A program made the position numbers and the translations under genes. Below the pieces are notes generated by a model. The model did not search any database, had not been told where the DNA came from, and saw only the letters and a list, made by a program, of their open reading frames with translations. From Gammaproteobacteria bacterium (GTDB lineage Bacteria; Pseudomonadota; Gammaproteobacteria; G965277405), in contig OZ255726.1 in NCBI GenBank assembly GCA_965277405.1, positions 1,632,001 through 1,696,000 of the forward strand: DNA of 64,000 nt. The letters are read 5' to 3'. This document shows positions 15,684 to 63,099 of this stretch, one piece after another. Every line of letters begins with the position of its first letter. Position 1 is the stretch's first letter.

Positions 15684-15695
15684 CCAGGACTACCA

Positions 15696-16439: not shown

Positions 16440-16507
16440 CTTTTTATGCATCTACAACAAAACATGATTGACTATAAAGTTACCCCACCAGCACTGGCAC
16501 AAATCGC

Positions 16508-16786: not shown

Positions 16787-16991
16787 TAGCTATATAGCAT
16801 ACGGAAACATCTTACTGCTATTTAATGTCGCCGCATTGTTGCTAAAGTAGCTACCCATTTGCTCTTATCTCTTGGCAAAACTTTACAAAATAACACCACC
16901 ACCCCCGCATAATTTATTGAAATTAGTGAAGTCGCCAAATTAACGTCATCGATACGCCATGTTTTGTCGCAACTTAAGACCTGGTTGATGA

Positions 16992-17123
16992 TCATTGGGA
17001 CGCGAGATGTTCAAATAAGCGGGCAACTGCTTCGGCTCCTGGATCGATGTGTCCTGCTAGTTGCGCTGCGCTGATGTATGCCGCGCGACCAGCGTTGGCT
17101 TTGACCAAGGTCGCGGTGTATTG
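16992..17123 (-). pseudogene. C-terminal fragment of a DAK2/DhaL-domain dihydroxyacetone kinase
   Basis: Manual translation QYTATLVKANAGRAAYISAAQLAGHIDPGAEAVARLFEHLASQ*, with the GRA-x-Y and DPGA motifs. Confidence 0.75.
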
Positions 17124-17126
17124 CCA

Positions 17127-17293
17127 AATTGCAGCAGCCCACGCAGGCGATTATAGCGTATTGCACACATTACAAGCGGTGTTGCGAACTCTCCCGTACG
17201 CTGAACAGCCAAACAAGGAATACCTCGCCCAAACACGCCAAAATTGCGCAAAAAACAAGCTCTGGCGCAGCTAATTATCGTGAAGTTCGTAAT
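17127..17293 (+). pseudogene. Degenerate duplicate of the selO 3' end
   Basis: IAAAHAGDYSVLHTLQAVLRT matches selO IEAAHAGDYSVLHTLQALLRT (11915-12077); contains indels. Confidence 0.85.
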
Positions 17294-17401
17294 TATTCCT
17301 AAACAAAATACTGTAATTGGCAAAATGTACGCTAAAATAGCAATTTAAAAAATATCTGCAATCGGTGCAGGTAAAAATCACTAAACTAAAAGGAGATATT
17401 C

Positions 17402-18439: not shown

Positions 18440-18533
18440 TTGCCCAAGCGCGCACTTCTGCGGATTTTCATACACAACGATTAGCAACAACAGCAGTATT
18501 GTCAATACTAGTATTGCAGTTGACATTTTCTAA

Positions 18534-18830
18534 GGAAGTTCTGATGAAGTCGCTGATGGAGCGAGTTTGCCTGCAATTGCAGATGATTGCAAGGCGCATA
18601 CCGCAGGCGCATGTCGTAGCAAATACGCCAAGGGATGCAACACAGCAAACTTAAGCAATTGCCGCAAACCATAATATATTCAACACAACGACGGGTAAAT
18701 ACGCTGCGATCGGTCGTTGCAGTACTTGATAATACCCACAAGTCACCACCAGTGTTTTCTGTGCATTGCGTATAGTTATCATCAGCGTTTTTGCTCCGTC
18801 TCGCCAGTCATGGACTTAATCAGAACTTCT
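18534..18830 (-). mobile_element. MITE copy 3 (inverted, degenerate)
   Basis: CTAA|GGAAGTTCTGATGAAGTCGC ... GACTTAATCAGAACTTC. Confidence 0.9.
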
Positions 18831-18885
18831 TAAATAGCAGCATTCCATTGAACGTCAAGGAATAAAACTTAGCAATAGCAAATAT

Positions 18886-19470
18886 TTGTATCAGCGGATT
18901 ACGTTGCTACAAAGTGCTCGTCGTCCACGGCAGATGCTATCGCAGTACGCATTAGCGAATGGCACATATGCAACAGCAGAGGTTGCATATGCCGATGATG
19001 TTGCTGCGTCATCGCTGAGCAAAGATGATAAGTTGCTGTTTGGTTATGGCGCTACTGTTGTAACAGATGAACATGGCGTTATTTGTTGATACGCATACCA
19101 GCGCGATGGGAAGTTTGCAGATGGTATAGCAGCTGCCCCTATCAAAGCGGGACAAACGTTTGAGTATGATAAGGGAGCTGCCAGCAAAGCAAGTATTGCT
19201 ACGTGATAAGCAAATTGATGATGGCATTATGCGTAAAAAACCACGCGGTAACGCAATGCCACACTGGCAAAAGGCTGGTAACCTGCTGATATCATCAAAA
19301 CGCTTTGTGGTCGAGAGAACTTTCGCCGCAATGGAAAGGGTGTATGGTCTCCACCGCGCACGATATCTTGGCATAGCCAAACCATGCTGAGGTTGAAGGC
19401 GATGGCGTATGACTTGAAAAGGTTAGCAACTTATTATCAAGAACAGCAGCAGTATTGCTGCCATAAATTT
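18886..19470 (+). pseudogene. Degraded IS5-family (IS1106-like) transposase
   Basis: DGIMRKKPRG ... KRFVVERTFAAMERVYGLHRARYLG, then frameshifted LKAMAYDLKRLA; multiple frameshifts. Confidence 0.8.
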
Positions 19471-19576
19471 AGGAAAATATCCCAAAAAATCCCTGATAAA
19501 TGGGCATATATGCGCTATTTTCGCCACATTCTGTGTTTCTTTCAGTAAAAATCCCCAATTTGCAATTTTCTACTCT

Positions 19577-19770
19577 TCAAAGCAAAAAATGATGGGGTGT
19601 GGCAGTGGTCTTACTTCGTGCCAACGCATCGCGCGGACAGCGCACGGTATAGTCGACATCAGCCGCGTCACACTCTGCAATTTGGACGAGTGTATCACCA
19701 TCAATTGGGCTGATTGCCGCAGCCACTTTTGCTGACTTTTGCTGGATGATATTTTCCGCCAATAACACAT
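19577..19770 (-). pseudogene. N-terminal fragment of an aldehyde dehydrogenase (PuuC-like)
   Basis: ISPIDGDTLVQIAECDAADVDYTVR resembles an ALDH N-terminus; truncated next to the IS remnant. Confidence 0.6.
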
Positions 19771-19859
19771 ACCTTTGAATTTTAGCTGATGGACATATGG
19801 CTGCTATGAATATTGGTTGGAGGTAATACGCATACGCTTATTATAGGTAGAATGGTAAA

Positions 19860-21422
19860 TCAGTTGCGCAACGTTGTGCGGCTATGGCACTGGCGTGGTT
19901 GCATACTGCTGGCTATTGATATTTGACGAATAGCAATTTTACTATATGGATGCAGTGTTGTGACATCACCTATTTGATATAATGGTCGCTGAACTAGCCG
20001 TTGTGCTGCGCTAAAAAAACTTGGGCAGTCTTCATGCACAGCGTCACAAACGGCAACAATTGCTGTATGAGTAATCTGTGTTGGGCTGACCCAAAGGTTG
20101 CGTTGTGGTTTATTGAGTGAATAGGTAGTTACCATCCCATCATCATATAGCGCAATTGCTGCTGGCAAATCATAATCATTGCCAATATATAGCTCACCAC
20201 TGCTATCAACGCCATGGCACGAACGCAGTTGCTGTATTTGCCGCGCAGTTTGTTGCCAACCCACCCACGCCATCGATTTATCGGCAAAAGGCGAGTCAAA
20301 CAGCGCCCGACCCCAATGGAAGCTGACATGTCCAAAAACAAATACAACCAATACTAATCCGAGCATGCCATTGACCCCATACAGCCACACGCCCCATCTT
20401 GGGATGCGTTGCAGTGCGTCTGCCAGCAATACGTACGAAAAAATAATACCGATTCCTGCCCACTGTACATCCATATGTCCGCCGCGGGAGGTGGTATATA
20501 CGCAGACTGCTAATACTGGCCACAACAAAAATTGCACCAAAATCATCACGCCTTGGCTGCGTTTAAACGTTGCCGCAGCAAAATACAATAATAACGGTAA
20601 CGCAAGCACACCGTATACCAATAAACTGCTGATAAAAATTGCGGGCTTGGTGATATTCCATTCAGCTACAACACTGGCGCTGCGGTCTAATTGATAGCCA
20701 ATATTTAACCAATCATTTTCAATATTCCACAACCAAAACGGTCCCATAACCATCAATACAATCAACGGCAGCGCGTACACCTGCCACCGCAACCACAACC
20801 AGCGGTTCTCTCTTGCAGCAATTAACCAGCAATATATTGCAATACAAACAAACACGACCAAGAGCTTTGCCAGCCCAGATAATCCCAGCAACACAGCTAC
20901 TACCAATAGCCAATGGGCATTGTTACTACGGTAAAAAAGCATCAATGCCAGCAGCGCTGCTGCGGTAAAAAAATACATTGGCACATTGATTGTCATTAAC
21001 AACCCTAATGCAAAAAAGTAGGGTGAAGACAATACGAGGGCAAGATAGCCGAATGCCACTTTGGCTGAATCAAACCCCAACAACACAGAGGTAAAGAACA
21101 TATATACTGCAGCAGACCATAGTACCAGCGCTGCCAATTTTACTGCTACAAAACCACTCAGCCCTGGAATTGCATCAAACCCTGCAATCAACCATGCCAC
21201 CATCGGTGGATGCTCTAAATACCCTCCTTGCAGCTGCAGCGACCATATCCAGTGATCAGCCATATCTGGATGCGCATCAATCGTCATGCTATACAAACCG
21301 AGCACAACAGTATATATGGCAATAATCCATGCTCCAAGCACAAGCGGGTGTTGCTGGCGAATCCAACCGTTCATATTACTATATTGAGTAGATGCTGCGG
21401 TTTCTAAAATATATTTGCACAA
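19860..21422 (-). CDS. ArnT/PMT (GT83/GT39-like) membrane glycosyltransferase
   Basis: PDMADHWIWS, GGYLEHPPMVAWLIA, LGLSGLAK, PFWLWNIENDW; multi-pass membrane protein. Start may be 21377. Confidence 0.85.
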   Translation of the reverse strand: MCKYILETAASTQYSNMNGWIRQQHPLVLGAWIIAIYTVVLGLYSMTIDAHPDMADHWIWSLQLQGGYLEHPPMVAWLIAGFDAIPGLSGFVAVKLAALVLWSAAVYMFFTSVLLGFDSAKVAFGYLALVLSSPYFFALGLLMTINVPMYFFTAAALLALMLFYRSNNAHWLLVVAVLLGLSGLAKLLVVFVCIAIYCWLIAARENRWLWLRWQVYALPLIVLMVMGPFWLWNIENDWLNIGYQLDRSASVVAEWNITKPAIFISSLLVYGVLALPLLLYFAAATFKRSQGVMILVQFLLWPVLAVCVYTTSRGGHMDVQWAGIGIIFSYVLLADALQRIPRWGVWLYGVNGMLGLVLVVFVFGHVSFHWGRALFDSPFADKSMAWVGWQQTARQIQQLRSCHGVDSSGELYIGNDYDLPAAIALYDDGMVTTYSLNKPQRNLWVSPTQITHTAIVAVCDAVHEDCPSFFSAAQRLVQRPLYQIGDVTTLHPYSKIAIRQISIASSMQPRQCHSRTTLRN

Positions 21423-21483
21423 CGAGCAAATTTGATAGCAAATTTGATAATAGTGATGCTGATGCTAAACCCTTGGTGCATAG

Positions 21484-21768
21484 GGAACCTCTGATTAAGT
21501 CCATGATGGGCGAGACGGAGAAAAAACGCTGATGATAACTAGACGCAGTGCGCAGATAATACTGGTGGTATTATCAAGTGCTGCAACGACGTTAGCGCAG
21601 CGTTTTTTCCCGTCCTTCTGTTGAATATACTTTGGGTTTGATGGTAGCGGTACTTGCTGTGTTGCATCCCTTGGCGTATATGCTACGGCATGCGCCTGCG
21701 GAATGCGCCTTGCAATCATCAGCAATTGCCATCAAACTCGCTCCATCAGCGACTTAATCATAGCTTCC
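21484..21768 (+). mobile_element. MITE copy 4, followed by an extra solo end at 21789-21801
   Basis: GGAACCTCTGATTAA ... TTAATCATAGCTTCC|TTAG, then AATCAGAGCTTCC|CTAA. Confidence 0.92.
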
Positions 21769-21806
21769 TTAGCGGTGCAGCATCCAAAAATCAGAGCTTC
21801 CCTAAA

Positions 21807-22223
21807 CTACTTATTAACCGTTGGCAAATTTGCATCCTGCCAGCCAGCCATGCCACCAGCTAGACGTACCACGTCATACCCTTGAATCAATAAATTCTCA
21901 GCAATACTGCGTGTTGACATTCCTGAATTGCAGACAAGAACCAACTTTTTATGGCGGTGCTTTTCAAAATAATGGTTTTGTTTTTCAATAGAAGTAGCAG
22001 GAAGATGTTCAGCGGCTGTGATATGTCCCGCACGAAAATCTTTTTCATTGCGAACATCAACGATCCAAACGTGGTCACGATTTATCATAGTTACAAGTTG
22101 ACTTGGCGATATACCTGTACCTGCTTTGGATTTTTCTAACACAATAATCGCTAGTACTACCGTCACGAGGCAGCCGACGAGTAACGGTTGTTGGTCAACA
22201 AAAAAAAGAAGTTTAGTGAACAT
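21807..22223 (-). CDS. Rhodanese-like domain membrane protein (YibN-like)
   Basis: N-terminal TM helix, IVDVR, FRAGHI, LVCNSG, LAGGMAGW. Confidence 0.88.
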   Translation of the reverse strand: MFTKLLFFVDQQPLLVGCLVTVVLAIIVLEKSKAGTGISPSQLVTMINRDHVWIVDVRNEKDFRAGHITAAEHLPATSIEKQNHYFEKHRHKKLVLVCNSGMSTRSIAENLLIQGYDVVRLAGGMAGWQDANLPTVNK

Positions 22224-22290
22224 TATGGGGTCTCTGGGTAAATCTATACAGGTAGTAGTTTGTTGTAAATGGCGATGATTACAAGGCGCA

Positions 22291-22875
22291 TTATGCTGAA
22301 TCGCTCGGTGTTGGCTTAGCGGTAGGCGGTATAGGAGCAGAAGAACTTACTTTTGGAGTTGTTGCTGTTGGCTGCGTCGATGCTGATTTTGTTGCAGGAC
22401 GTACTTTGTTTACTACAGCTGTTGTAGTTGTAGTTTTTTTCTCCTGCGTCTTGCTTGTTGGAGATTTTGTGCTATTTGACTTTCTCACGGAAACTGTGCT
22501 AGCTGTTTTGGGCGTTAAATTAGCACTTGCTGCTGTACTGCTATTGCCAACATTCGAGCGGCTTGGAATAGGCGTACGGCTGTTCTGGTCAGCTGTTACT
22601 TGTGGCCATTCACCAAATGGAAATGGTTTGTTTGCTGAATTACTGCTGATATAACTCACAACCTGCTGTGAATATATAGCGAGAGATTCACCAAATCGAC
22701 ATAGCTTTTCTAGAGGTTCCTTACTAAACAGCAGCGCTAGCGACTGCACGATACCAATCAAAAACACTGCAATCTGCAAAATATACATTACCAAACAAAA
22801 AATGAACGTAAAAATTATACGCAGCCAACTTTCGCCATCCAGCAGATTACCGATTATTCCTGAACGTTTTTGCAT
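22291..22875 (-). CDS. DUF4389-like membrane protein with S/T/K/P-rich tail
   Basis: WLRIIF, FGESLAIY, KPFPFGEWP, then about 100 aa of low-complexity sequence. Confidence 0.7.
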   Translation of the reverse strand: MQKRSGIIGNLLDGESWLRIIFTFIFCLVMYILQIAVFLIGIVQSLALLFSKEPLEKLCRFGESLAIYSQQVVSYISSNSANKPFPFGEWPQVTADQNSRTPIPSRSNVGNSSTAASANLTPKTASTVSVRKSNSTKSPTSKTQEKKTTTTTAVVNKVRPATKSASTQPTATTPKVSSSAPIPPTAKPTPSDSA

Positions 22876-22959
22876 AATAGTATGATGTTTTGAAAACTAG
22901 TATCATACACAAGATAAGATACTCTCGCCAATATTATGAGCTGTATTCAAAATCCGTAG

Positions 22960-23252
22960 GGAAGCTCTGAGTAATTCCATGATGGGCGAGACGGAGCAAA
23001 AACGCTGATGATACTTAAGCGCAGTGCGCATTAATACTGGCGGGTCTTGTGGGTATTGCCAAGTGCTGCAACGACGTTTGCGCAGCGTTTTTTCCCGTCC
23101 TTCTGTTGAATATATAACGGTTTGCCTACAAGCGGTACTTGCTGTGTTGCATCCCTTGGCGGATAGCTAGGTCATGCGTCTGCGGTTTGCGCCTTGCAAT
23201 CATCAGCAATTGCAGGCAAACTCGCCCCATCAGCGACTTAATCAGAGCTTCC
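22960..23252 (+). mobile_element. MITE copy 5
   Basis: GGAAGCTCTGAGTAA ... TTAATCAGAGCTTCC. Confidence 0.92.
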
Positions 23253-23451
23253 TTTGCTGCTACTAGTGTATTTCGCCTTTACATGCTACAAAAGCTGTGA
23301 TATTTTTTAAATAATTGCAATACACTTTATATTTTTATATTATTCCACGACAACAGTTTCTTCATGTTGTTTTCAATATTCAATACCTGACAATCCACCG
23401 GCGAGCGTTGCAACGCCGACAACTCTTATTAGTAAACTCATCCACCACGAT

Positions 23452-24711
23452 ATGAATTTGAATGAACTCAAGCGTATGTCCATGCCCGAGCTGCTTGCTT
23501 TTGCAAAAGATAAAAACATTGAAAATATGGGGCGTTCGCGCAAGCACGATCTGATATTTGCGCTGCTCAAACACCACGCCAAACAAGGCGCAGAAATAAG
23601 CGGTAGCGGATCACTTGAAATACTGCAAGATGGCTTTGGCTTTCTACGTTCAAGTGATAGTTCATACGTTGCAGGTTCTGATGACATATATATTTCACCA
23701 AGCCAAATACGCCGCTTTCAACTACGCAAAGGGGATACTATTAATGGACTAATCCGTCCGCCAAAAGAAAACGAACGTTACTTTGCCCTTCTCAAAGTCA
23801 TCGAAATCAACTTTGAGAAACCTGAGAATGCGCAATCTAAAATTTTGTTTGAAAACTTAACCCCACTCTTCCCAGACGAACATATCAAGCTTGAAGTCGA
23901 CGGCATGTCGGATCGACAGGCACTCACTGGCAGAATGATTGACTTACTCTCACCCATAGGAAAAGGTCAGCGCGGCTTACTGGTTGCGCCACCGAAAGCT
24001 GGTAAAACATTTATTCTTAAAAATATCGCCAAAGCAATTGAAAAGAACCATCCAGAATGCCATCTGCTGGTATTACTGATTGATGAGCGCCCCGAAGAAG
24101 TTACTGACATGCAACGCTCTGTTAAAGGTGAAGTGACTGCAAGCACCTTTGATGAACCAGCAACCCGCCATGTGCAAGTTGCAGAAATGGTGATTGAAAA
24201 AGCTAAACGCCTCGTGGAACACAAGCGTCATGTCATTATTTTACTCGATTCAATCACCCGCCTTGCCCGCGCATATAACGCAGTCATTCCATCATCTGGC
24301 AAAGTTTTGACCGGTGGTGTCGATGCCAATGCATTAGAAAAACCAAAACGTTTTTTTGGAGCCGCAAGGAATATTGAAGAAGGCGGAAGTCTGAGTATTA
24401 TTGCCACAGCATTGATTGATACTGGCTCAAAAATGGACGAAGTTATTTATGAGGAATTCAAAGGAACTGGCAACATGGAGCTCCACCTTGACCGCGAAAT
24501 TGCAGAAAAAAGAATTTATCCTGCGATCAACATCCGCCGTTCAGGTACCCGCCGTGAAGAGCTGCTCATCCCTGAAGATATGCTGAAAAAAATGTGGATT
24601 CTCCGAAAAATATTACACCCTATGGAAAACGTTGATGCCTGTGAATTCATCGTAAATCGACTAAAGAACAGCAAGGATAACAACGACTTTTTTGCAATGA
24701 TGAAAAAGTAA
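23452..24711 (+). CDS. rho: Transcription termination factor Rho
   Basis: [48 protein letters not shown]. Confidence 0.98.
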
Positions 24712-47498: not shown

Positions 47499-48597
47499 AT
47501 GGAAATGGAACGCAATCAAATCAACAATGAAATAAAAAATCGTTTGGCGCAAGTACACGCGCTGCGGAGGTATCTTTGACTACGATGCCAAACTGCAACG
47601 CTTGACGGAACTCAAAGATTTATTGAGCAATCAATCCTTGTGGCAGGACCGACAACGCGCACAACAACTCAGCAAAGAGGAAGCACACATTGATCGAGTC
47701 ATTACCCCGATCAATCAAGCCTTGCAACAGCTCGACGCGCTCGACGAGTTGTTGGAAATGGCGTGCATGGAAAATGACGATGCAGTTATTGCAGATGTTG
47801 TTGCGGATTTGCAAGGCGTGGGCAAAACTATTGATGATTTAGAGTTTCAGCGGATGTTCAATAATCCACATGACCCAGCCAATGCGTATATCGACATCCA
47901 AGCAGGATCTGGGGGCACCGAAGCGCAGGATTGGGCAAATATGTTGTTGCGGATGTATTTGCGCTGGGCGGAGTCGCATCAGTTTAAAACAGAAATGCTC
48001 GATTATTCACACGGCGATGTAGCTGGCATTAAAAACGCAACAATTTTGGTGAGCGGGTCGTACGCGTTTGGTTGGGCACGCACAGAAACAGGGGTCCATC
48101 GCTTGGTGCGCAAATCACCATTTGATTCAAACAGCAAACGCCATACTTCATTTGCCTCGGTATTTGTCTCACCAGAAATTAACGATGATATTGAAATCGA
48201 TGTCAACCCAGCAGATTTGCGGGTCGATACTTATCGCTCCAGCGGTGCAGGTGGGCAGCATGTCAACACCACAGATTCTGCGGTGCGGATTACCCATCTG
48301 CCAACGGCAACGGTTGTCCAATGCCAAAACCAGCGCTCACAGCATCAAAACCGTGATAAAGCGATGCAGCAGTTGCGCGCCAAGTTGTATGAAATTGAAA
48401 TGCTAAAACAACGCGCGGAGCGCGATGAGGTAGAAGCCAATAAATCTGACATTGGTTGGGGCAGCCAAATTCGTTCATATGTCCTTGATGATGCGCGGAT
48501 TAAAGACTTGCGCACGGGGCATGAAACAGGCAATACTCAAGCGGTATTGAATGGTGATATTGACGCTTTTCTTATTGAAAGTCTGCGGACTTTATAA
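47499..48597 (+). CDS. prfB: Peptide chain release factor 2 with programmed +1 frameshift
   Basis: ORF1 from 47499 ends GGAGG-TAT-CTT-TGA-C; the +1 frame continues with SPF and GGQ motifs. Confidence 0.96.
47566..47580 (+). promoter_or_regulatory. prfB +1 ribosomal frameshift site
   Basis: Internal SD GGAGG followed by TAT CTT TGA C. Confidence 0.95.
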
Positions 48598-49244: not shown

Positions 49245-49446
49245 CCGATGAAGTGAGTTTGTTAGCAGATGCTGTTGTTGATGCCCGCACCATCACGAAC
49301 ACTTCTTTATGGTAATTGTGCGCGTGGAGTTTTGCAGCGATAGCGTTTGAAATTTGCAGTATTCATCGATATAATTCCTAGCAAACAGGTGTTGTTCTTG
49401 CTGGTAACATGTATTATTCGCAATATTTTACATTTAAATTGGAGTT

Positions 49447-50037
49447 ATGGGCATTATGTATACTAATAGAATTGCTTCACAGGTATTGATTGTCGGTAGT
49501 GTTTTGCTGGCGGGCTGTTCATCTTCCCCTACCGTTCCCACGCAGGAAAAATGCGTGTTTCCAGACGCTGCGGGTGGTGATGCTCCACTGTGGGTGTGTC
49601 ATGAGCGTCTTGATGGTGGCCCAAAATTTCAAGCAATGGGAAGTTCACGACTAGGAGGAAACCGTTCACTAGCTGAGTCAAAAGCAACGGCTGTTGCACA
49701 GGTTAAATTGGCGCGGCGGATGAACAGCTCCATAAAAAACATGCTTGAAGGCTATGCCGCTGAAGTGGTATCAACCGATGGCGATGTTATCAACACAGAT
49801 AGCTTTGAAGAAACAACTCGGATTACAGTGAAGCAAAATATTATCGGCAGCCACATTATTCGAAAAGTGGTTAGTTCTAGCGGAGACGAACTGTATGTAC
49901 TGATGGTAATGAATCCTGCTGATGTTAAGGAGGTGGTAGGCGAAGTTATCGATGTACTGGAACAGGAAAATAATCTGTTAAAGGGTAAGATGAACCTAGG
50001 CAATGCAATGAAACGCCTCGATGAGAAGGTGCAATAG
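49447..50037 (+). CDS. LPP20-like lipoprotein
   Basis: Lipobox LLAGC, CxFPD...APLWVC, helical AESKATAVAQVKLA, LYVLM strand. Confidence 0.75.
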   Translation: MGIMYTNRIASQVLIVGSVLLAGCSSSPTVPTQEKCVFPDAAGGDAPLWVCHERLDGGPKFQAMGSSRLGGNRSLAESKATAVAQVKLARRMNSSIKNMLEGYAAEVVSTDGDVINTDSFEETTRITVKQNIIGSHIIRKVVSSSGDELYVLMVMNPADVKEVVGEVIDVLEQENNLLKGKMNLGNAMKRLDEKVQ

Positions 50038-50041
50038 GTCG

Positions 50042-50109
50042 TTAGTGCCTGCATAGTCGTTAGCGTCCGCATAGTTAGCGCCCACATATATTATATTAGC
50101 GTCCACATA
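50042..50109. repeat. Four imperfect TTAGCGTCC(G/A)CATA repeats
   Basis: Units at about 50042, 50060, 50075 and 50096. Confidence 0.7.
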
Positions 50110-50120
50110 TAAATGCCGCC

Positions 50121-50498
50121 ATGCGCCATTGTTTGTTGTTTGCTTTGGTATTGCTTCTTCCATCTTGCACACTATTTCAACCGCATCCTCCTGAATGGAT
50201 GAACAATCCACCAGCAAACAGCGGAGTTGGCATTGCTGGACCGAACATAGGCGGCATTCCCGCACAAATCAGCTTAGCAACCCACCGAGCCAGTATTGAT
50301 TATGCAAAAAGGAAAGGGTATCTGGTTGAATCATCAACTCTGGTTCGCGCTGGTGCTGATGGGAAGATTGAATGGGAAGAGCTAGAGGAGAATAGCAACG
50401 GGACTATGGAGGCAACTAAAGTGCAGGTAGAAGTGCGAGAACGTTGGTACGATGGGCATACCAACTACTATGTTCTGGTTACGGCAGTGGATGAGTGA
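50121..50498 (+). CDS. Small lipoprotein (LPP20-like)
   Basis: Lipobox LLPSC, PEWMNNPP, GVGIA, QISLATHRA, YYVLV. Confidence 0.7.
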   Translation: MRHCLLFALVLLLPSCTLFQPHPPEWMNNPPANSGVGIAGPNIGGIPAQISLATHRASIDYAKRKGYLVESSTLVRAGADGKIEWEELEENSNGTMEATKVQVEVRERWYDGHTNYYVLVTAVDE

Positions 50499-50636
50499 TG
50501 GGGTTTTAGTTGGTATTCTAACCATTCATCCAATATTGATTGTTTGTAGGTTTGATTCAGCATTCTGGCAACGTGTGTTGCAACGAAAAATGCAAGTGAT
50601 GAGTGATATTCACCAGTTTAAACGCCCAGCTAATAA

Positions 50637-50651
50637 GGAATCGCTGATTAA
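50637..50651. repeat. Solo MITE-like end
   Basis: TAA|GGAATCGCTGATTAA, the exact reverse complement of the variant end at 29108-29122. Confidence 0.6.
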
Positions 50652-50825
50652 GCAGATGATTGGCATATGTCGTGTAAACCACTGCCAACGTTGTCAAACT
50701 ATTGAAATATACTGAATGTTTTCGTACACTTGTCTGTGATTTTTGCTGTCTTTGCTCTAGCATAGTCTCTATAGCGTAACAATTGTGCAGATTGATCAAT
50801 ACAACGCCACAGGAGGGGGACGTTC

Positions 50826-53702
50826 ATGCGAAACACCACACTCAGTACAACAGTAACTAGATTTGCCGTGTTCGTCAGTTGTATCCTGTTAGCCGTAGGC
50901 TGCGCTACACAGCAGGCTACACAGCACAAGCCACAGCAGGCTAGTCAACAGCACCAGCTACAGCAGGCAAAAAAACAGCACCAGCTACAGCAAGCTCAAC
51001 AGCACCAGCCCAACGCAGAGTTGCGGAACGCCACCAGAGTGGCGTTCAAGGAGCGAATCCGTGTTATTAAGCTGTTGCGCACCATTAATGGGCATAGTAA
51101 CCATGTATACTCAGTCGCCTTCAGTCCAGATGGTAAGACCCTCGCCAGCGGATCTCGCGATGGTATTCTCAAACTCTGGAATCCGCGCAGCGGTAAGTTG
51201 TTGCGCTCCATGAATGGGCATAATAGTGACATGGTAACGTCAGTCGCCTTTAGTCCAGATGGTCAGACCTTCGCCAGCGGATCTGGGGATAATACTATCA
51301 AACTCTGGAATCCGCGCAGCGGCAAGCTGTTGCGCACCATTAATGGGCATAGTGACCATGTAGACTCAGTCGCCTTCAGTCCAGATGGTAAGACCCTCGC
51401 CAGCGGATCTCGCGATGGTATTCTCAAACTCTGGAATCCGCGCAGCGGTAAGTTGTTGCGCTCCATTAATGGGCATAATAGTTACATGGTAACGTCAGTC
51501 GCCTTTAGTCCAGATGGTAAGACCCTCGCCAGCGGATCTCGCGATGGTATTCTCAAACTCTGGAATACGCGCAGCGGCAAGTTATTGCGCACCCTGAATG
51601 GGCATAGTGACCATCTATACTCAGTCGCCTTCAGTCCAGATGGTAAGACCCTCGCCAGCGGATCTCGCGATGGTATTCTCAAACTCTGGAATCCGCGCAG
51701 CGGTAAGTTGTTGCGCACCATGAATGGGCATAATAGTCACATGGTAACGTCAATCGCCTTTAGTCCAGATGGTAAGACCCTCGCCAGCGGATCTGGGGAT
51801 AATACTATCAAACTCTGGAATCCGCGCAGCGGTAAGTTGTTGGGCACCACTAAAGTGCAGAGTAACGATGTATTTTCAGTCGCCTTCAGTCCAGCTGGAA
51901 CCCTCGCCAGCGGATCTACTGATAATACTATCAAACTCTGGCAATTACCACCGAGGCTAGATGCCAATGACTTGAATAATGACTGGAATAAGTTTGTCGT
52001 CAGTTGGAATCGTGGCGACGCAGGGCTAATAGAATTGTACCAGCTACAACGCAAATACCCAGAGGATGCCGTCATAGGCGATGCATACGTCAAAGCGAGT
52101 GTCGCTAGCCCCTACGAAAGTGGCCGAGTTGCTGTTTATTTGCACCGGCGGCAGCTTGACAGCACTAGCTGGCGGACAACTACCGCCTTTATCCAACAAC
52201 TGGCTTCTGACTGGCTCAACCTTAAGGAAATAATCAAACCAGCGAAAATCATAATGCCTACGTTACCGCCAGCTGTAGAGCTGACACAGGAAAATTGGGA
52301 AGGGGATAGTGAATTCGAAACTCGAGTTGCTCAGCTGAACAAGGCGCGTCAAGCGCGGATAAACCAACTTCAAGCAGACTACAGACACAAGGTCGAAGTG
52401 CGCAACAGCAAAGTTAGCAAGCTTGAACGCCTACAACAGCAACGCCATAATCAACTAGCAAGCTATGTACAAGGCATACTTGATTATAGCCTTGAAACGC
52501 AGCCGCCAGCACTAGACAAAGTAATAATCAACCAACAAACACTTGATCTTTATGCTGATCTGGTGTTCAAAGGAACCCTTGTTGGTCGCTATAAACTGGC
52601 GCAGGCGCCACTGAAGCTGCGCAAACAGGCTATGACTAACAGCAAAAGTGTGAAAGTTCTACCAAATATTGAGTTAAGCGACACCAATGATTTTCGTGTA
52701 ACTTCAATCACTATCTTGCATGATGATCAAAGATGGCTAGCGCAGGCAAGCGAGCAGCAGCTACAACACACGAATACCCCTTTGGTTGCTACCATCGGCA
52801 ACGCCGGCGAAACGCGTGAACTGAGTAGTATCTCCCTACTGCAAAAGCAAAACCCCAACCTAGTCGATGTCAACTCAGTGGGGACGGTTCAGTACAAAGA
52901 CGGCACCACAGCACTCACCCGCTATCAAGACGATCTCACTCCGCTGGTGCAACAATTAGCCCAAGCACCAATAGACCAAAGCAAATGGCTGTTCGTCATC
53001 GGTGCAGAACGCTATCAGGAGACAGATAACATCCTTTTTGCCAGAAGAAGTGCCGAGAACTTTGCCCTCGCCGCCAAAAAATCACTTGGCATCGACGCTG
53101 GTCACACCATCACCCTCTACGACGAGCAGGCAACCAGTGGACAGATCAAAACCAAGCTCAAAAAGCTGCTGCGTGATGGCATTAGTTCAGGTGACAGCAT
53201 TATCATTTACTACAATGGTCACGGCTTGCCGGTCAGAGAACAGGACGATACCCCCTATATGCTGCCGACCGATATGATTCCCGACTTTGTCAGCGATGAG
53301 CCTTTTTTTAAACTTGAAAATATGTATGCTTTACTCGCTAAATCGAAAGCAGGCAACGCAATAGTGATAATGGACAGTTGCTTTACTGGCGGCGCGGACG
53401 GCAGGTCAGTCATCAAAGGTGTGGCAGCAGCGAGGCTATCACCAAAAAAACTTTTGATAGACAAGAGCAAACTCATCGTTATGACAGCAGGGACAGACAA
53501 GCAATACTCCACCGCCTTCAAAGACAAAGGCTACCGACTTTTTAGCTACTACCTGATTAAAAGGCTGGTAGCAAACAAACCGCAAACGGTTGAAGATTGG
53601 TTTGAATCGGTACAAAGTCAGGTCAAAACAACTTCGCGCCAAATAGGAGGCTCGCTCAGCTATCAGGATCCGCAGTTGCTGGGGAGCAATCAGCAGCTAT
53701 AG
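50826..53702 (+). CDS. Lipoprotein with 7 WD40 repeats, coiled coil and C-terminal caspase-like (peptidase C14) domain
   Basis: AGGAGG RBS, lipobox LAVGC, seven (GH)...SVAFSP...LASGS...KLW repeats, FVIGAERY, YYNGHG (His), IMDSCFTG (Cys), QDPQL. Confidence 0.9.
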   Translation: MRNTTLSTTVTRFAVFVSCILLAVGCATQQATQHKPQQASQQHQLQQAKKQHQLQQAQQHQPNAELRNATRVAFKERIRVIKLLRTINGHSNHVYSVAFSPDGKTLASGSRDGILKLWNPRSGKLLRSMNGHNSDMVTSVAFSPDGQTFASGSGDNTIKLWNPRSGKLLRTINGHSDHVDSVAFSPDGKTLASGSRDGILKLWNPRSGKLLRSINGHNSYMVTSVAFSPDGKTLASGSRDGILKLWNTRSGKLLRTLNGHSDHLYSVAFSPDGKTLASGSRDGILKLWNPRSGKLLRTMNGHNSHMVTSIAFSPDGKTLASGSGDNTIKLWNPRSGKLLGTTKVQSNDVFSVAFSPAGTLASGSTDNTIKLWQLPPRLDANDLNNDWNKFVVSWNRGDAGLIELYQLQRKYPEDAVIGDAYVKASVASPYESGRVAVYLHRRQLDSTSWRTTTAFIQQLASDWLNLKEIIKPAKIIMPTLPPAVELTQENWEGDSEFETRVAQLNKARQARINQLQADYRHKVEVRNSKVSKLERLQQQRHNQLASYVQGILDYSLETQPPALDKVIINQQTLDLYADLVFKGTLVGRYKLAQAPLKLRKQAMTNSKSVKVLPNIELSDTNDFRVTSITILHDDQRWLAQASEQQLQHTNTPLVATIGNAGETRELSSISLLQKQNPNLVDVNSVGTVQYKDGTTALTRYQDDLTPLVQQLAQAPIDQSKWLFVIGAERYQETDNILFARRSAENFALAAKKSLGIDAGHTITLYDEQATSGQIKTKLKKLLRDGISSGDSIIIYYNGHGLPVREQDDTPYMLPTDMIPDFVSDEPFFKLENMYALLAKSKAGNAIVIMDSCFTGGADGRSVIKGVAAARLSPKKLLIDKSKLIVMTAGTDKQYSTAFKDKGYRLFSYYLIKRLVANKPQTVEDWFESVQSQVKTTSRQIGGSLSYQDPQLLGSNQQL
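51075..51940 (+). repeat. Intragenic WD40 tandem array with alternating 126/129-bp units
   Basis: Unit starts at 51075, 51201, 51330, 51456, 51585, 51711, 51840; near-identical at the DNA level. Confidence 0.95.
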
Positions 53703-53719
53703 CACAAGCCAGACAAAGC

Positions 53720-54772
53720 ATGCAATCTCCTTGGCAGTTTGTCTGTATGGCAATACTCCTAAGTTGTTGCGCCACAAACACACCAACCCTAGAATATCCG
53801 CAGTGGTACAAAAGATTACCGCAGCAGCAAGGGATAGTGATTGGCTATGGCTATGGTTTGACAAAACAAGAAGCTCGGTACAAGTCTTTTGATCATCTTC
53901 GTAACCAGCTGGGCGTCAGCGTACATTCCACTCAGGTTTTTTCTGAGTTTGAACGAATTACTAACATTGGCATTGATGAGTTCAGCGATACAAGGGCAGC
54001 AGAAGTAATTATTAATGCGGATATACACGGAGCCGTCCTGCGTAAGGCTGAGCAACGAGGCAGTTATTATTTCATCGCTTACAGCACTGATATCAGGTCG
54101 GTTCGGTCGCGTATTCTCGAAACCCCCAGTCTTTGTCAAGGAGCAAAGGCTGTCGGAATACACAGGCAGCAAAGCCTAACAGGTTTCAAGCCATTCGCAC
54201 CAATCACCCGAGATTTACAAGCAGATGGTTGCCCAGACAACTGGACTCTACAACGGCTGAATAATTCATGGTCTATTGAATTGGCGGGACACAGTTTCCA
54301 GCTACCGAATGAGCAACTATGGCGTCTTACCCTTGCTATAGACAAGACAGATGAACTTACACTGCTTGACGATAAACATCATGAACAGGAGAGTTTTCGT
54401 GCTGGTGAGCGTTATTTCGTTTCCTATAACAAACCAGTTAATAGCAACATGTACCTTTTTCTCGTTAACGAACTTGGTCAGGTTAATCTACTTGATCAAT
54501 CCGAGGCCAAACAGCTACGCCGTGAGCGCTGGTTGTACCCCAATCCCGATAAATACGCTGGTGGTTTGATCGCAGCACCGAACTCAAGTGGATCAATACA
54601 TAATGACTTAATAGTGGCAGCCGCTTGTCCTGAGACTATCCACTATCATTTTTCCTCCCTGACAAGTGCAAAACCTGACCTTGCCGATGAAAGACTGTAT
54701 GTTCTGGACCGATTGATCAAGGAAGTTGAGCATTGTTTGGTACATATGAGAAGCCTCAGGATAGTATTATAA
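53720..54772 (+). CDS. Lipoprotein with LPP20-like N-terminus and DUF4384-like C-terminal domain
   Basis: Lipobox LLSC, YPQWY, GYGYG, EAR; FRAGERYFVSY, MYLFLVNELGQVNLL, YPN. Confidence 0.65.
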   Translation: MQSPWQFVCMAILLSCCATNTPTLEYPQWYKRLPQQQGIVIGYGYGLTKQEARYKSFDHLRNQLGVSVHSTQVFSEFERITNIGIDEFSDTRAAEVIINADIHGAVLRKAEQRGSYYFIAYSTDIRSVRSRILETPSLCQGAKAVGIHRQQSLTGFKPFAPITRDLQADGCPDNWTLQRLNNSWSIELAGHSFQLPNEQLWRLTLAIDKTDELTLLDDKHHEQESFRAGERYFVSYNKPVNSNMYLFLVNELGQVNLLDQSEAKQLRRERWLYPNPDKYAGGLIAAPNSSGSIHNDLIVAAACPETIHYHFSSLTSAKPDLADERLYVLDRLIKEVEHCLVHMRSLRIVL

Positions 54773-54869
54773 TGTTCAGGTGAAGCACTGAGTGTTGCGG
54801 TCGGATGTTATATGCAGATATGCTATGCTGGTCAACCCTGACCATTAGCCACATAACCATGAGAAAAAT

Positions 54870-56333
54870 ATGCGCATTTACCTAGCACCTGTATTTGTGA
54901 CAATCCTTTGGATTACTTCTTCTTCAATAACAACAACTTACGCTGCTAGCGATATTGAGCAGCGTAAGCTGCAGATGCAGCAGAGCATAAATAAGCAAAA
55001 AAAAATCTTTGCAGCTTACAAGCGCAATAGTAAAAACGAGTTTGAAGCCTATCGTGCCCAGCAACAGGAAACTTTAAAAAAAGCAATTAAAGAAAACTGG
55101 CGCCAATTTCAAATTTACAAAGCAGACTTCAGCTTGCTTGGCAACAAGCCGCAAAACCAACCAGCCTACGGCAACCAGGTTAAACATCAACTAGCAGCCA
55201 AATCACCAAATCTCAAAACATCAATTGTAAAACCTAGGGATGGTCATCTTTCACAGCAAAAAACAGCAAACACGCAGCCACTTAATCTGTATGGAATGAC
55301 GTTATCTATGCCTGTGGTCACGCAGCCAGTCATGTCAGCAGGAGCAGACAAACAGGCAATTACTGACTATCTACAAGTAAACCCAGATTACGAAAAAAAG
55401 TTAGTTGTGTTTGCCCGTGATACTGCAGAGCGACTCCACCTTGACGATTGGGGTACATACTTGCTGATGCGTGAAATAGCACGGCAGCTCTACCCAGATA
55501 GCTGGCAAACCAGACGCCTTGCCCAATGGAAATGGATGAATCAGCTTGGCTACGATCTGCGCATAGCCGAAACAAGCAACGAATTACGTTTACTACTACC
55601 AGTCACCCAGACAATATATGGTCACTCATACATATTTATAGAAGGCAATAAATACTATCTTGATACCCCAGCTGGTAGCGACTTGCACACCTATCCACAA
55701 CAATTTGATAAACTTGCAGCCATAGAGAATATCAACCCAACACAAGTGCGGTGGTCTGATGACAAGCAGAATATTCATGTTCGCCAGCTTGATTATTCCA
55801 ACGATGGCGAACACTACCAAATTACGCTTAAGTTCGATATACGTACACTGCGGATGATGCAGGATTATCCGCAAATGATTTTTTCTCGATATTTTAAAAC
55901 ACCTCTTTCGCCAAAACTTGAACAATCACTCAAAGATCAGCTCATGCCTGTGCTTGCAGGCAAGAGCAAATATCAGCAGGCAAGTCTGCTGCTTAAGTTG
56001 GTACAGAAATCTCTCGCCTACCAGACTGATCAACAACAGTTTGGCAAGGAAAACTACCTATTTGCCGAAGAATCTATAGGGTTTCCATATGCCGACTGTG
56101 AAGACAGAGCTATTCTGTATGCTTGGCTGGTGCATGAGCTGCTCGACCTTCCCTATCTGGTACTGCTATACCCTAACCACCTGACTACGGCCATAGCTCT
56201 GAACGGAACAGGTGACACAATTCATTATGGCAATACCATCTATCTGATAGCTGACCCAACATACATAGGGGCACCAATCGGTAAAGCCATGCATCCGCAG
56301 ATAGAGCCAAAGATTATTTATGCTTCACAATAG
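54870..56333 (+). CDS. Secreted protein with C-terminal transglutaminase-like Cys-His-Asp domain
   Basis: Signal peptide (TTTYA/AS), coiled coil, YQTD, ADCEDRAIL, PNHLTTAI, IADPT. Confidence 0.7.
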   Translation: MRIYLAPVFVTILWITSSSITTTYAASDIEQRKLQMQQSINKQKKIFAAYKRNSKNEFEAYRAQQQETLKKAIKENWRQFQIYKADFSLLGNKPQNQPAYGNQVKHQLAAKSPNLKTSIVKPRDGHLSQQKTANTQPLNLYGMTLSMPVVTQPVMSAGADKQAITDYLQVNPDYEKKLVVFARDTAERLHLDDWGTYLLMREIARQLYPDSWQTRRLAQWKWMNQLGYDLRIAETSNELRLLLPVTQTIYGHSYIFIEGNKYYLDTPAGSDLHTYPQQFDKLAAIENINPTQVRWSDDKQNIHVRQLDYSNDGEHYQITLKFDIRTLRMMQDYPQMIFSRYFKTPLSPKLEQSLKDQLMPVLAGKSKYQQASLLLKLVQKSLAYQTDQQQFGKENYLFAEESIGFPYADCEDRAILYAWLVHELLDLPYLVLLYPNHLTTAIALNGTGDTIHYGNTIYLIADPTYIGAPIGKAMHPQIEPKIIYASQ

Positions 56334-56364
56334 AGCGTTGTTTTGGTGTTATACATGCGCTGTT

Positions 56365-56614
56365 GCGGTACTTGCTGTGTTGCAACCTTTGGTGTATATG
56401 CTCCGGCATGCGCCTGCGGAATGCGCCTTGCAATCATCAGCAATTGCAGCAATTGCAGCAAACCGTTGTATATTCAACAGAATGACGGGAAAAAACGCTG
56501 CGATAACGTCGTTGCAGCACTTGATAATACCACCAGTATTATCAAGTGTTGCGCTTCAGTTATCATCAGCGTGTTTGCTTAGTCTCGCCCATTATTGAGT
56601 TAATCAGAGCTTCC
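56365..56614 (-). mobile_element. Rearranged MITE copy (internal inversion, one end missing)
   Basis: 56365-56447 in + orientation joined at GCAATTGC to a - orientation left half ending TTAATCAGAGCTTCC|TTAA. Confidence 0.85.
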
Positions 56615-56627
56615 TTAATAAGTTATA

Positions 56628-57725: not shown

Positions 57726-58430
57726 TTATAGTTGCCAGTCGATTGGTTGGATGGCGTGATTCTGTAAATATGTGTTGGTTGCTGAAAAAGGCCTGCTACC
57801 AAAAAAACCATTGTGTGCCGAAAAGGGTGATGGATGTGCGCTGGCAATAATGTGATTGTGGGTAGGGTCGATTCCTGCTGCCTTGCGTTGCGCGTATTTG
57901 CCCCAGAGGATGTATACAATGTTGTGGTGATGTTGTTGCAAACGCGCGATGATTTGATCAGTAATCCATTCCCAACCTTGCCCCGCGTGTGATGCGGCAG
58001 CGCCAGCGCGGACAGTCAGCACGCTGTTTAATAGCAACACTCCTTGTTGTGCCCATGCTGTTAAATCACCTTTTCCTGCGTTTTGAATAGATATATCCGC
58101 ATACATTTCAGTATGGATATTGCGCAATGATGGCGGAATCTGTATACCATTTGCCACAGAAAATGCTAGCCCCATCGCCTGTCCTGGGCCATGGTATGGG
58201 TCTTGTCCGAGCATAACAACTTTCACAGTATCGACTGGCGTGCACTGCAGTGCTGTATAGATGAGATGGCGAGGTGGGTATACGGTATGTTGCAGTTGTT
58301 GCTGTTGTAAAAAAGTTCCAAGTTGCAGCGCCTGTGGCTGGATTAGGCAGTCAGCTAGCAGTGACTGCCACGATGATTCAAGCACGGCTGTGATTGTTTC
58401 GATTGTCGAATTTGATGGGCAATTTTCCAT
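57726..58430 (-). CDS. ung: Uracil-DNA glycosylase
   Basis: GQDPYH, PPSLRNI, GVLLLN, HPSPFS. Confidence 0.96.
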   Translation of the reverse strand: MENCPSNSTIETITAVLESSWQSLLADCLIQPQALQLGTFLQQQQLQHTVYPPRHLIYTALQCTPVDTVKVVMLGQDPYHGPGQAMGLAFSVANGIQIPPSLRNIHTEMYADISIQNAGKGDLTAWAQQGVLLLNSVLTVRAGAAASHAGQGWEWITDQIIARLQQHHHNIVYILWGKYAQRKAAGIDPTHNHIIASAHPSPFSAHNGFFGSRPFSATNTYLQNHAIQPIDWQL

Positions 58431-58491
58431 GATGGCATTGGTAATGGCAGTAGTTTTTCGTACAATGGATTTTTTTATTCCGCATAAGTAT

Positions 58492-59088
58492 ATGGAAAAA
58501 ATAATATATGGGCTGGTAATTACATTACTTGCTGGCTGTGGAGCATCAACGCCAACATTAGACGAAGTGCGTGCTGTATCTGAGTGCTATTATCCAGATA
58601 CTGTAGATGTTGAAGGGCCTGCTTGGGTGTGTGATGGTCCAGTTGATGGTGTTGCGCTCAAAGCAGTTGGTGTTGCTGAGCCAACGCAGGCAGGTTTTGC
58701 ATTTCAACGCAGAATTGCACAAAATAATGCACAAATTGAGATAGCTGTGCGGGTTCGCAGCAGAGTGCGCGACATCATTCGGCAATATACTGAGCAAATC
58801 GGCAATGTGCCTGAAGAGCAAACGAATGCCGTGATTACAGTTACCACACAAACAATTACTGATGTGACGCTGCAGCAAGTAGAACTGTTCGCAAGTATCA
58901 AATCCCCGAATAATTATTTCTATGTGTTGATGGGGATTACCGATGATAATTTTAATGCGTTTTTAGATACCGCATTACGCTCTAGCATACAACAGAATGC
59001 TGATGACTGGGGAGCATTTCTAGATTTACACAATCAAGATCAGGAGTTACTTGCAAAAGAACTTATTACAAAAGGAATAGGTTCATAA
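58492..59088 (+). CDS. LPP20-like lipoprotein (paralogue of 49447..50037)
   Basis: Lipobox LLAGC, CYYPD...GPAWVC, FYVLMG. Confidence 0.75.
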   Translation: MEKIIYGLVITLLAGCGASTPTLDEVRAVSECYYPDTVDVEGPAWVCDGPVDGVALKAVGVAEPTQAGFAFQRRIAQNNAQIEIAVRVRSRVRDIIRQYTEQIGNVPEEQTNAVITVTTQTITDVTLQQVELFASIKSPNNYFYVLMGITDDNFNAFLDTALRSSIQQNADDWGAFLDLHNQDQELLAKELITKGIGS

Positions 59089-61207: not shown

Positions 61208-61517
61208 GTTGATCAAACGGTTATGCTATGTTGCTATAATTGTATTACTGTTTTTTTTGGCGATGTTATTTACTCGCAACAATGCAACAGAGCTTGTCAT
61301 AGATTTTTGGGTGTGGCAAACTCCGCCTGTCTACGCTGGGGTGTGGTTCATCATTATTTTTGTTGCAGGCATGACCCTGACGGCTATTCCTTGGGCTATC
61401 CAGCGCAGTTTTTATCGTCACAGCGTTACCAGCCTCAAACGCAAGCTGGCAGCAGCAAACACGCTTAAGGAACCTCTGATTAATTCCATGATGGGCGAGA
61501 CGGAGAAAAAACGCTGA
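61200..61517 (+). CDS. lapA: LapA-like LPS assembly protein with MITE-derived C-terminus
   Basis: Two TM segments, RN...IDF; after ihfB; last ~15 aa read through MITE copy 10. Confidence 0.65.
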   Translation: MIRLIKRLCYVAIIVLLFFLAMLFTRNNATELVIDFWVWQTPPVYAGVWFIIIFVAGMTLTAIPWAIQRSFYRHSVTSLKRKLAAANTLKEPLINSMMGETEKKR

Positions 61518-61748
61518 TGATAACTAGACGCAGTACGCAGATAATACTGGTGGTCTTGTGGGTATTGCCAAGTGCTGCAACGACGTTATCGCAGCGTTTT
61601 TTCCCGTCCTTCTGTTGAATATACTTTGGGTTTGCTGCAGCGGTACTTGCTGTGTTGCATCCCTTGGCGTATATGCTACGGCATGCGCCTTGCAATCATC
61701 AGCAATTGCAGGCAAACTCGCTCCATCAGCGAGTTAATCAGAGCTTTC
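61469..61748 (+). mobile_element. MITE copy 10
   Basis: TTAA|GGAACCTCTGATTAA ... TTAATCAGAGCTTTC|CTAA. Confidence 0.93.
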
Positions 61749-61780
61749 CTAAGCTATAACGCAACACAATAGTTTTGCTG

Positions 61781-62635: not shown

Positions 62636-63099
62636 TTAGCTACAACGAAGATTTACTCTTTGCTGATTTAGAGCAATTTAAGCAAAAACTGGCTAACTGG
62701 TTAGGGAAACTCTGATTAAGTCCATGATGGGCGAGACGGAGAAAAAACGCTGATGATAACTTAAGCGCAGTGCGCAGATAATACTGGTGGTATTATCAAG
62801 TGCTGCAACGACGTTAGCGCAGCGTTTTTTTCCGTCCTTCTGTTGAATATATGATGGTTTGCTGCAATTGCTGCGCTTGCTGTGTTGCATCCCTTGGCGT
62901 ATATGCTACGGCATGCGCTTAGCGGTTTGCGCCTTGCAATCATCAGCAATTGCAGGCAAACTCGCTCCATCAGCGACTTAATCAGAGCTTCCTTAGTGTG
63001 GTACAACTATGAGCGACCTCATCATTCACATAACAAAAACCACCTATTCAAGCTATGCTACTCTGTCAACCTCAGTGCAATATGTATTGGACGCATACA
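62636..63099 (+). pseudogene. IS481-like transposase 3' remnant interrupted by a MITE
   Basis: Removing the MITE and one TTAG restores YNEDLLFADLEQFKQKLANWLVWYNYERPHHS; downstream CNMYWTHT ends in ACA. Confidence 0.7.
62705..62992 (+). mobile_element. MITE copy 11 (TTAG target duplication)
   Basis: TTAG|GGAAACTCTGATTAA ... TTAATCAGAGCTTCC|TTAG. Confidence 0.95.

Follow-up and report, generated by a model that had tools for sequence, protein, structure and literature searches.

The closest described parallels to the gene discussed here are the HNWD NLRs of fungi and the highly repetitive WD40 proteins of bacteria; what we quote from the papers cited in this text refers to the available parts of those papers. 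HNWD repeats are classified by the residues at positions 10, 11, 12, 14, 30, 32 and 39 (PMC12222747), and the position pairs under selection lie in the d-a loop and the b-c turn, on the top face of the propeller (PMC1805685). For bacteria, 305 highly repetitive WD40 proteins are on record and variable hotspot sites have been noted in them (PMC5587647); further, an HNWD-like diversifying regime in the repeats of bacterial NLRs has been proposed as a possibility (10.1101/2020.01.06.895854). The window analysed here is a stretch of 64,000 nucleotides of a gammaproteobacterial contig. On its + strand, at 50826..53702 and behind a Shine-Dalgarno-like AGGAGG, it carries a gene for a WD40-stalk-caspase protein of 958 aa (P0001). 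In our opinion it is rather probable that the WD40 array of this protein is a seven-bladed head with a variable binding surface that would aim or trigger an exported caspase. The head is likely a fast-evolving binding surface, because it is reshuffled and varies at the HNWD positions while the enzyme behind it is nearly unchanged.

The array (51069..51944, + strand, residues 82-373) is matched by Pfam WD40 in seven stretches. The initial annotation had described it as seven repeats, enough for one propeller, built of A and B units on a 255-bp dimer period. Tandem Repeats Finder (255 bp, 3.3 copies, 91% matches; a second period of 129 bp with 6.7 copies) and direct reading at 51069-51944 both agree with this. 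In repeats 1-6 the unit length alternates between 126 and 129 bp: repeats 1-3 occupy 51069-51194, 51195-51323 and 51324-51449 (126, 129 and 126 bp), and repeats 4-6 occupy 51450-51578, 51579-51704 and 51705-51833 (129, 126 and 129 bp). Repeat 7 (51834-51944) has diverged from all the others, by 33-42 differences, and is shorter than they are. The loops NHVY, SDMVT, DHVD, SYMVT, DHLY and SHMVT and the GSRDGI and GSGDNT blocks are in the sequence exactly as first read. The description of the repeats as near-identical applies within a type (2-6 differences among the short units) but not between types (16-24). The idea that repeat 4 (51450..51578) is a mosaic has held up well: of 15 sites diagnostic for short and long units, the first nine are long-type and the last six short-type, an order expected by chance at 4e-4, and distances taken half by half likewise show its 5' half to be long-type and its 3' half to be short-type. 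The substitutions are indeed clustered, since 12 of the 25 variable bases of repeats 1-6 fall in the seven HNWD codons (expected 4.2, p 2.8e-5).

As to structure, the propeller is modelled with seven blades, as had been expected from the repeat count. In the AlphaFold block the predicted local distance difference test (pLDDT) runs from 78 to 96. Foldseek aligns the model with 7big, a 7-bladed derivative of WRAP, at a template-modelling (TM) score of 0.97, a root-mean-square deviation (rmsd) of 0.9 and 59% identity; identity to 2ymu is 56%. By DSSP, WD40 positions 10-12 lie in the d-a loop, position 14 at the start of strand a, and positions 30 and 32 in the b-c turn. The variable positions would thus form the top face of the propeller. 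The earlier prediction that the variable residues lie on one face would agree with this placement in loop and turn, the face itself being taken from the published geometry.

Five versions of the protein can be compared: P0001, the product of a second copy in the same genome, and P0002-P0004 from other ENA assemblies, for which locus and strain of origin are not told apart; P0004 is more distant (about 80% identity in the stalk). The caspase domains are identical at 254-258 of 258 residues, and the WD40 heads at 59-74%. Hence the array is not invariant; it is an invariant array that the initial annotation had named as speaking against its proposal. The variation in repeat number for which it had suggested looking across strains is not found, as all five versions have seven repeats. 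All 35 repeats carry distinct codes at the seven HNWD positions. The highest entropies fall, in order, on positions 30, 12, 14, 11 and 32, all of them HNWD sites (chance 2.5e-5). Positions 12, 14 and 30 each take 11-14 different residues, many of them W, F, Y, H or R, while framework neighbours and most silent sites around them are fixed; 23 of the 25 inner repeats keep the H/S/D/W structural tetrad. Among the four close proteins, identity is 0.755 between same blades and 0.755 between different blades, so the blades are not positional orthologs. In two cases identical 8-residue loops occur at different blades of different proteins. N-termini and junctions recombine as well: P0002 joins the second copy's N-terminus to the start of the window's junction, and P0003 has the reverse combination. 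The 126/129 alternation is limited to the window copy and absent from the other four versions. The A/B dimer period therefore stands for this copy but not as a general feature; we rejected the alternation as a conserved functional feature, and it most likely marks one recent amplification, a triplication of a dimer.

The second copy permits the same comparison within one genome. The gene belongs to a five-gene cassette (49265..56449, + strand) that is duplicated about 1.15 Mb away, at G000:C1:533775-540920 (locus L001), with 95.2% identity over 7203 columns in blastn. DNA identity between the copies is 97-99% upstream of the gene and 90.5% over signal peptide and linker, falls to 81.5% in the array and 77.8% in the junction (51942-52100), and then rises again: the stalk has 97.5%, the caspase 98.1% and the pair of genes downstream 99.7-99.9%. 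Repeats 1-6 of the second copy are 126-bp units only, and their loops differ from those of the window copy.

It might be asked if such an array is simply an assembly artefact, which the initial annotation had listed as a way for its reading to fail. The array is indeed not spanned by any short-read contig. The order of the three dimers is that of the assembly alone; no run contig crosses the whole array. However, the genome is a single contig, the array frame is open, all repeats are distinct, and pieces of the array are matched in independent sequencing runs. Three runs of one study (X1, X2 and X3) hold the cassette as contigs. Contigs of X1 and X3 correspond to repeat 7 plus junction with 0 differences over 367 and 468 bp. 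Run X1 contains a 129-bp-type unit, in which the letters of repeat 4 at 51212 and 51228 (5' part) are joined to the 3' half of repeat 2. In X2, low-depth contigs (about 8) and loose ends, read by eye, show loops that are also in P0003. For the 129-bp units the contig depth is 14 in X1 and 539 in X2 (single units about 11-17 and 180), a hint that their number may differ between these runs; depth is not a copy number, however, and was not counted as one. Given the open frame, the exact run contigs, the 129-bp-type unit in X1 and the seven repeats in all five versions, we rejected the artefact, whose probability we consider negligible.

The per-site test of selection that had been suggested gave a divided answer. 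We used our own implementation of models M1a and M2a with a FastTree topology, F3x4 codon frequencies and naive empirical Bayes. For the 12 full repeats of both copies together, the likelihood ratio test (LRT) of M2a against M1a gives 27.0, with omega 6.5 on 15% of sites, and flags positions 6, 11, 12, 14 and 30. With separate trees for each half of the repeat the LRT is 16.3, and the second copy alone gives 11.0. The largest LRT among 72 null simulations with one breakpoint is 9.0. An independent set, the 13 repeats of three Helicobacteraceae relatives, which have 4-6 repeats each, gives 25.1 and sites 11, 12, 14, 20, 30 and 32. Positive selection across both copies is thus supported, by a model with caveats.

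A number of points weigh against our reading, and we list them together. The window array alone gives an LRT of 3.7 (p 0.16), which is not significant. Counting after Nei and Gojobori gives, at the variable codons, a proportion of non-synonymous changes (pN) of 0.53 against 0.61 for synonymous ones (pS), a ratio not above 1; elsewhere the values are 0.07 and 0.14. The site model is our own code and ignores multi-base changes, and its null allowed one breakpoint only. Position 6, which is not on the top face, is flagged too. A permutation test on the incompatibility of neighbouring sites was not significant (p 0.09, 0.61 and 0.65). The assignment to one face combines DSSP with published geometry and does without model coordinates. 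In highly repetitive WD40 proteins at large it is the top face whose positions tolerate change best (PMC5587647), hence the location of the variable sites alone is no proof of selection.

Some of these points suit a simpler explanation, namely recent amplification with relaxed constraint: propellers would be rebuilt from single blades, their loops would drift, the head would be a generic scaffold, and recombination would have produced the selection signal as an artefact. Propellers are documented to be re-amplified continuously (PMC9218822), and both the window array alone and the counting result fit it. On the contrary, omega is 4-7 in three data sets and the main set lies above all 72 null simulations; it is also difficult to see drift in three positions with 11-14 residues each amid a fixed framework and mostly fixed silent sites. 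Further, the differences between the copies in stalk and caspase are mostly silent (17 synonymous and 9 non-synonymous of 518 codons). We regard this explanation as unlikely. That the head is kept variable by recombination and by selection on one face is, in contrast, a statement we make with good confidence.

The rest of the protein bears on what such a head could be for. A signal peptide (50826..50903, + strand) has at its end a lipobox-like LAVG|C26, as judged by eye from the lipobox pattern. Cys26 is invariant in all five versions, and the genome encodes processing machinery in LspA and LolA; the protein is predicted to be lipid-anchored outside the cytoplasm. A Gln-rich 27-bp tandem linker follows (50909..51009), with indels between the two copies of the gene. 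Behind the array come the junction (residues 374-440, 51945..52145), which is also exchanged between versions, and a stalk, a predicted helix of 65 residues (494-558, 52305..52499) followed by a small beta-domain (562-641). The stalk is conserved in the family and has no Pfam match. The Peptidase C14 (caspase) domain (52971..53699; PF00656, 49.7 bits against a cut-off of 21.4) has its catalytic dyad at His799 (53220-53222) and Cys852 (53379-53381), invariant in all 39 aligned rows. The full-length AlphaFold model from five rows (mean pLDDT 52.4) is reliable for the propeller only; the C-terminal part refolded with 39 rows reaches 83.1. The best fold match of the caspase domain is MALT1 (3v4o; Z 21.4, rmsd 2.7, 206 aligned residues), a likeness of fold only, because identity is 16% and metacaspases and caspases score just behind at Z 19-21.

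The stalk-caspase module is not restricted to this genome. It occurs in at least 285 confirmed GTDB stretches, the best 80 of which yield 74 loci, mostly in Campylobacterota, plus Vibrio, Shewanella, Spirochaetaceae and further groups. The N-terminus is hydrophobic in 42 of 48 full-length members, and the dyad is present in 47 of them. The full architecture is found in 88 of the best 150 representatives; 77 of these 88 have a hydrophobic N-terminus, 27 a lipobox-like motif and 80 the dyad. Three or more WD40 repeats are present in eight of the 88, in five of them with at least 70% inter-repeat identity. Scanning 63 of the remaining 80 showed other heads in the same slot: ankyrin in 9, Lcl_C in 9, Sel1 in 4 and other propellers in 3-4. 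In a tree of 32 hand-picked rows, the WD40 heads with conserved repeats form not one group but four, set between heads of ankyrin, Lcl_C and other types. In the same tree a supported clade unites the window's module with records from Spirochaetaceae and Burkholderiaceae. This placement, together with weak caspase-only matches in just 2 of 40 genomes of the same class, suggests that the source genome acquired the module horizontally. A metagenome scan added four distant loci, and a homologue used as query in the Atlas matched generic caspase clusters. In several genomes the family is represented two or three times, by members whose heads differ and some of which lie in tandem (L008 and L010 in one Spirochaetaceae record; L034, L035 and L023). 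We found no published description of this family in the open-access literature, supplements aside; the 305-protein list of PMC5587647 could hold members.

An exposed head could of course change merely to escape host receptors or phage, not to gain new partners. Such antigenic variation would agree with a predicted lipoprotein whose two copies exchange sequence, and with the other variable-loop propeller lipoproteins of the genome. However, the changes occur at known WD40 binding positions and not across all exposed loops; the long stalk and the caspase, which would also be outside the cytoplasm, are nearly invariant; and the family swaps binding folds in the same slot. We therefore consider antigenic variation improbable as the main explanation.

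The head might alternatively recognise self, binding neighbouring lipoproteins or kin cells in envelope assembly or kin discrimination, with the caspase as a processing or ligating enzyme. The gene downstream of the caspase (53720..54772, + strand) encodes a predicted lipoprotein that is a conserved partner in the family: it adjoins the caspase in 36 of the 51 loci with room for it, in 32 within 1 kb, a count that is partly circular because the profile was built from the same loci. Caspase-fold ligases and transamidases are among the structural matches (5h0i, 7w72). For a complex of stalk-caspase and partner the prediction scores are 0.07, 0.33 and 0.27 (mark 0.32), which we count neither for nor against. 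But the downstream partner genes are 99.7-99.9% identical between the copies while the heads differ by 18.5%, so that there is no co-variation, and the upstream lipoproteins differ by 1-3% only. Self recognition seems very improbable to us. The lack of co-variation between head and partner genes points to a foreign ligand.

Returning to a variable binding head on an exported caspase, we can sketch how it would work. Gene conversion or unequal exchange of the RecA type among near-identical repeats, both inside a copy and from one copy to the other, would move loop blocks and keep the framework uniform; the genome does encode RecA, and its WD40 matches are limited to the window gene and its copy. 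The 126/129 pattern would be the trace of one recent triplication of a dimer. Selection would favour new residues on one face of the propeller. The protein would be exported to the outer membrane, where the ligand may be a fast-changing foreign partner: a protein of a host or of a competitor, or else part of a phage. The last steps are the most speculative. MALT1 is activated by dimerisation; binding might likewise cluster the heads, so that the helical stalk would join caspase domains as in dimer-activated enzymes of the MALT1 type, and the substrate might be the bound target or a neighbouring lipoprotein. We infer recognition by this surface, and its control over the protease, from three features: the fusion is fixed, the dyad is intact, and binding folds replace one another in a single slot. 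We lean only slightly towards this functional link. The proposal of a recombination-diversified recognition surface coupled to the protease is supported by the different heads on a nearly invariant caspase, the variation at HNWD positions, the selection across both copies and the loops shared across blades. As a wider and more tentative possibility, the family may be an immune-receptor-like system of the envelope, a widespread lipid-anchored sensor-caspase free of any nucleoside triphosphatase (NTPase), in which an interchangeable head detects a foreign protein and fires the caspase at the target or at a partner lipoprotein, and of which the WD40 version would have converged with HNWD at the same codons.

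The other cassette genes, all on the + strand, have no family by NCBIfam or PADLOC. Upstream lie predicted lipoprotein 1 (49447..50037; no Pfam or NCBIfam family, 97.2% identity between the copies, weak relatives in 3 of the 74 loci) and the small predicted lipoprotein 2 (50121..50498; no family found, 99.0%). The partner (99.7% between the copies) likewise has no Pfam or NCBIfam family and is presumably LPP20/DUF4384-like. The last gene (54870..56333; no family found) encodes a predicted exported protein with a relative in 1 of the 74 loci, and it does not regularly accompany the family; the Cys-His-Asp arrangement of its product is presumably transglutaminase-like. The caspase protein has a weak PADLOC hit (PDLC02987, E 1.2e-6); PADLOC has no match in the other four cassette genes, and no listed effector, such as a gasdermin, is adjacent.

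A dispersed element of about 295 bp, of which the genome has 188 near-full-length matches, lies at window positions 62701-62996, also at 56363-56620 and about 61460-61760. The 3' end of the cassette falls inside a piece of it, so that the element is a possible mediator of the duplication. Broken transposase-like frames flank the second copy (L001:4922-5834 and 17376-18101), which we take to be IS5- and IS1595-like, and the genes upstream of that copy (L001:7-3720) are presumably aldehyde dehydrogenase-like and microcompartment-shell-like. A separate LPP20 lipoprotein gene (58261-59088; PF02169 above cut-off) stands about 2 kb past the cassette, and its relatives are near the caspase in 3 of the 74 loci. 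At 47536-48597 there is a frame whose 5' end sits in another frame; we assume it to be release-factor-2-like, with the split frame expected for programmed frameshift. Rfam matches in the window are limited to a single tRNA.

Other repeat systems are present in this genome. At G000:C1:544284-550709 and 1480137-1493676 there are predicted lipoproteins whose 41-residue (123-bp) repeats combine a fixed framework with two patches of high entropy; one of these lies downstream of the second cassette copy, at a distance of about 3.4 kb. A third system of diversifying repeats may be present at G000:C1:1880899-1885346, where two adjacent genes have near-identical N-termini and 108-bp Sel1-like repeats that are about 83% identical. 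In the very long arrays at G000:C1:599716-622236, 15544-23678 and 138636-143474, repeats of 276-288 bp number up to about 80.

How, then, does the protein relate to known systems? In diversified surface lipoproteins and sensors that are targets of diversity-generating retroelements (DGRs), the variable domain that binds is carried by an outer-membrane lipoprotein or stands next to caspase-like effectors (10.1101/2023.09.22.558884), a similar arrangement. Unlike these, the variation here lies in recombined blocks, and no reverse transcriptase (PF00078) was found in the 98.3% complete genome, a search whose control was positive in 3 of 14 genomes; we thus rejected a DGR origin. A suspected link between Lcl_C/DUF1566 and DGR sensors stayed unconfirmed, with 0 occurrences in the available text of that source. 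Prokaryotic metacaspases and orthocaspases share the Peptidase C14 domain, their commonest added domain is WD40 (10.9%), and some have signal-like N-terminal helices or probable signal peptides; the available text of PMC3501461 mentions neither a stalk domain nor a partner gene, and neither heads that can be swapped nor hypervariable repeats. MALT1 paracaspase (3v4o) is the best structural match of the protease domain, in fold only.

The WRAP of Npun_R6612 (PMC9218822) is, like our head, a highly symmetric 7-bladed WD40 propeller, and the closest solved structures, 7big and 2ymu, belong with this group of proteins. WRAP and the bacterial NLRs with conserved repeats (10.1101/2020.01.06.895854) are STAND-linked, whereas the window protein has a signal peptide and no NTPase: NACHT (PF05729) has no match in the genome, nor in residues 374-958 or 1-81, and no NTPase family was found in the protein or the cassette genes, the genome-wide search covering NACHT alone. 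In the available texts of PMC5587647 and 10.1101/2020.01.06.895854 selection is proposed and left untested, with 0 occurrences of 'positive selection'; here paralogue and allele data are at hand.

The Podospora anserina HNWD NLRs (HET-D and HET-E, as well as HET-R) are similar in several respects: WD40 units of 126 bp with high internal identity, repeat exchange within and between loci, a sensor and an effector in one protein, and variation and selection at positions of the d-a loop and b-c turn (PMC1805685, PMC12222747). Of the HNWD sites, 11, 12, 14 and 30 are flagged here on both copies, 32 stands out by entropy and in the relatives, and 10 and 39 are not flagged by the site model. Unlike HNWD proteins, the window protein is bacterial, has neither HET nor NACHT (no HET domain in the 81-residue N-terminus of signal peptide and Gln linker), carries its head N-terminally and a caspase as effector, is a predicted lipoprotein outside the cytoplasm, and has one 7-bladed propeller with a constant repeat number in five versions. 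With no NACHT or other NTPase domain it is not an HNWD protein or NLR, and we rejected NLR membership. Hence the parallel first drawn with HNWD holds for the mode of evolution, conserved and exchanged repeats varying at the same positions, and not for the kind of protein.

What is new, in our opinion, is the evidence at the level of alleles, a predicted exported setting free of any NTPase, and a family whose heads are swappable and which has a partner gene. WD40 diversification of the fungal type becomes visible directly in bacteria, with a built-in control in paralogues and alleles that share an almost invariant enzyme; natural variants of the head on an identical chassis make the ligands of bacterial caspases and repetitive WD40 heads directly testable. 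The scheme would have moved out of the cytoplasm and away from NLR and STAND proteins, onto exported caspases with swappable heads. The window protein is a member of neither HNWD nor STAND, yet it evolves like both.

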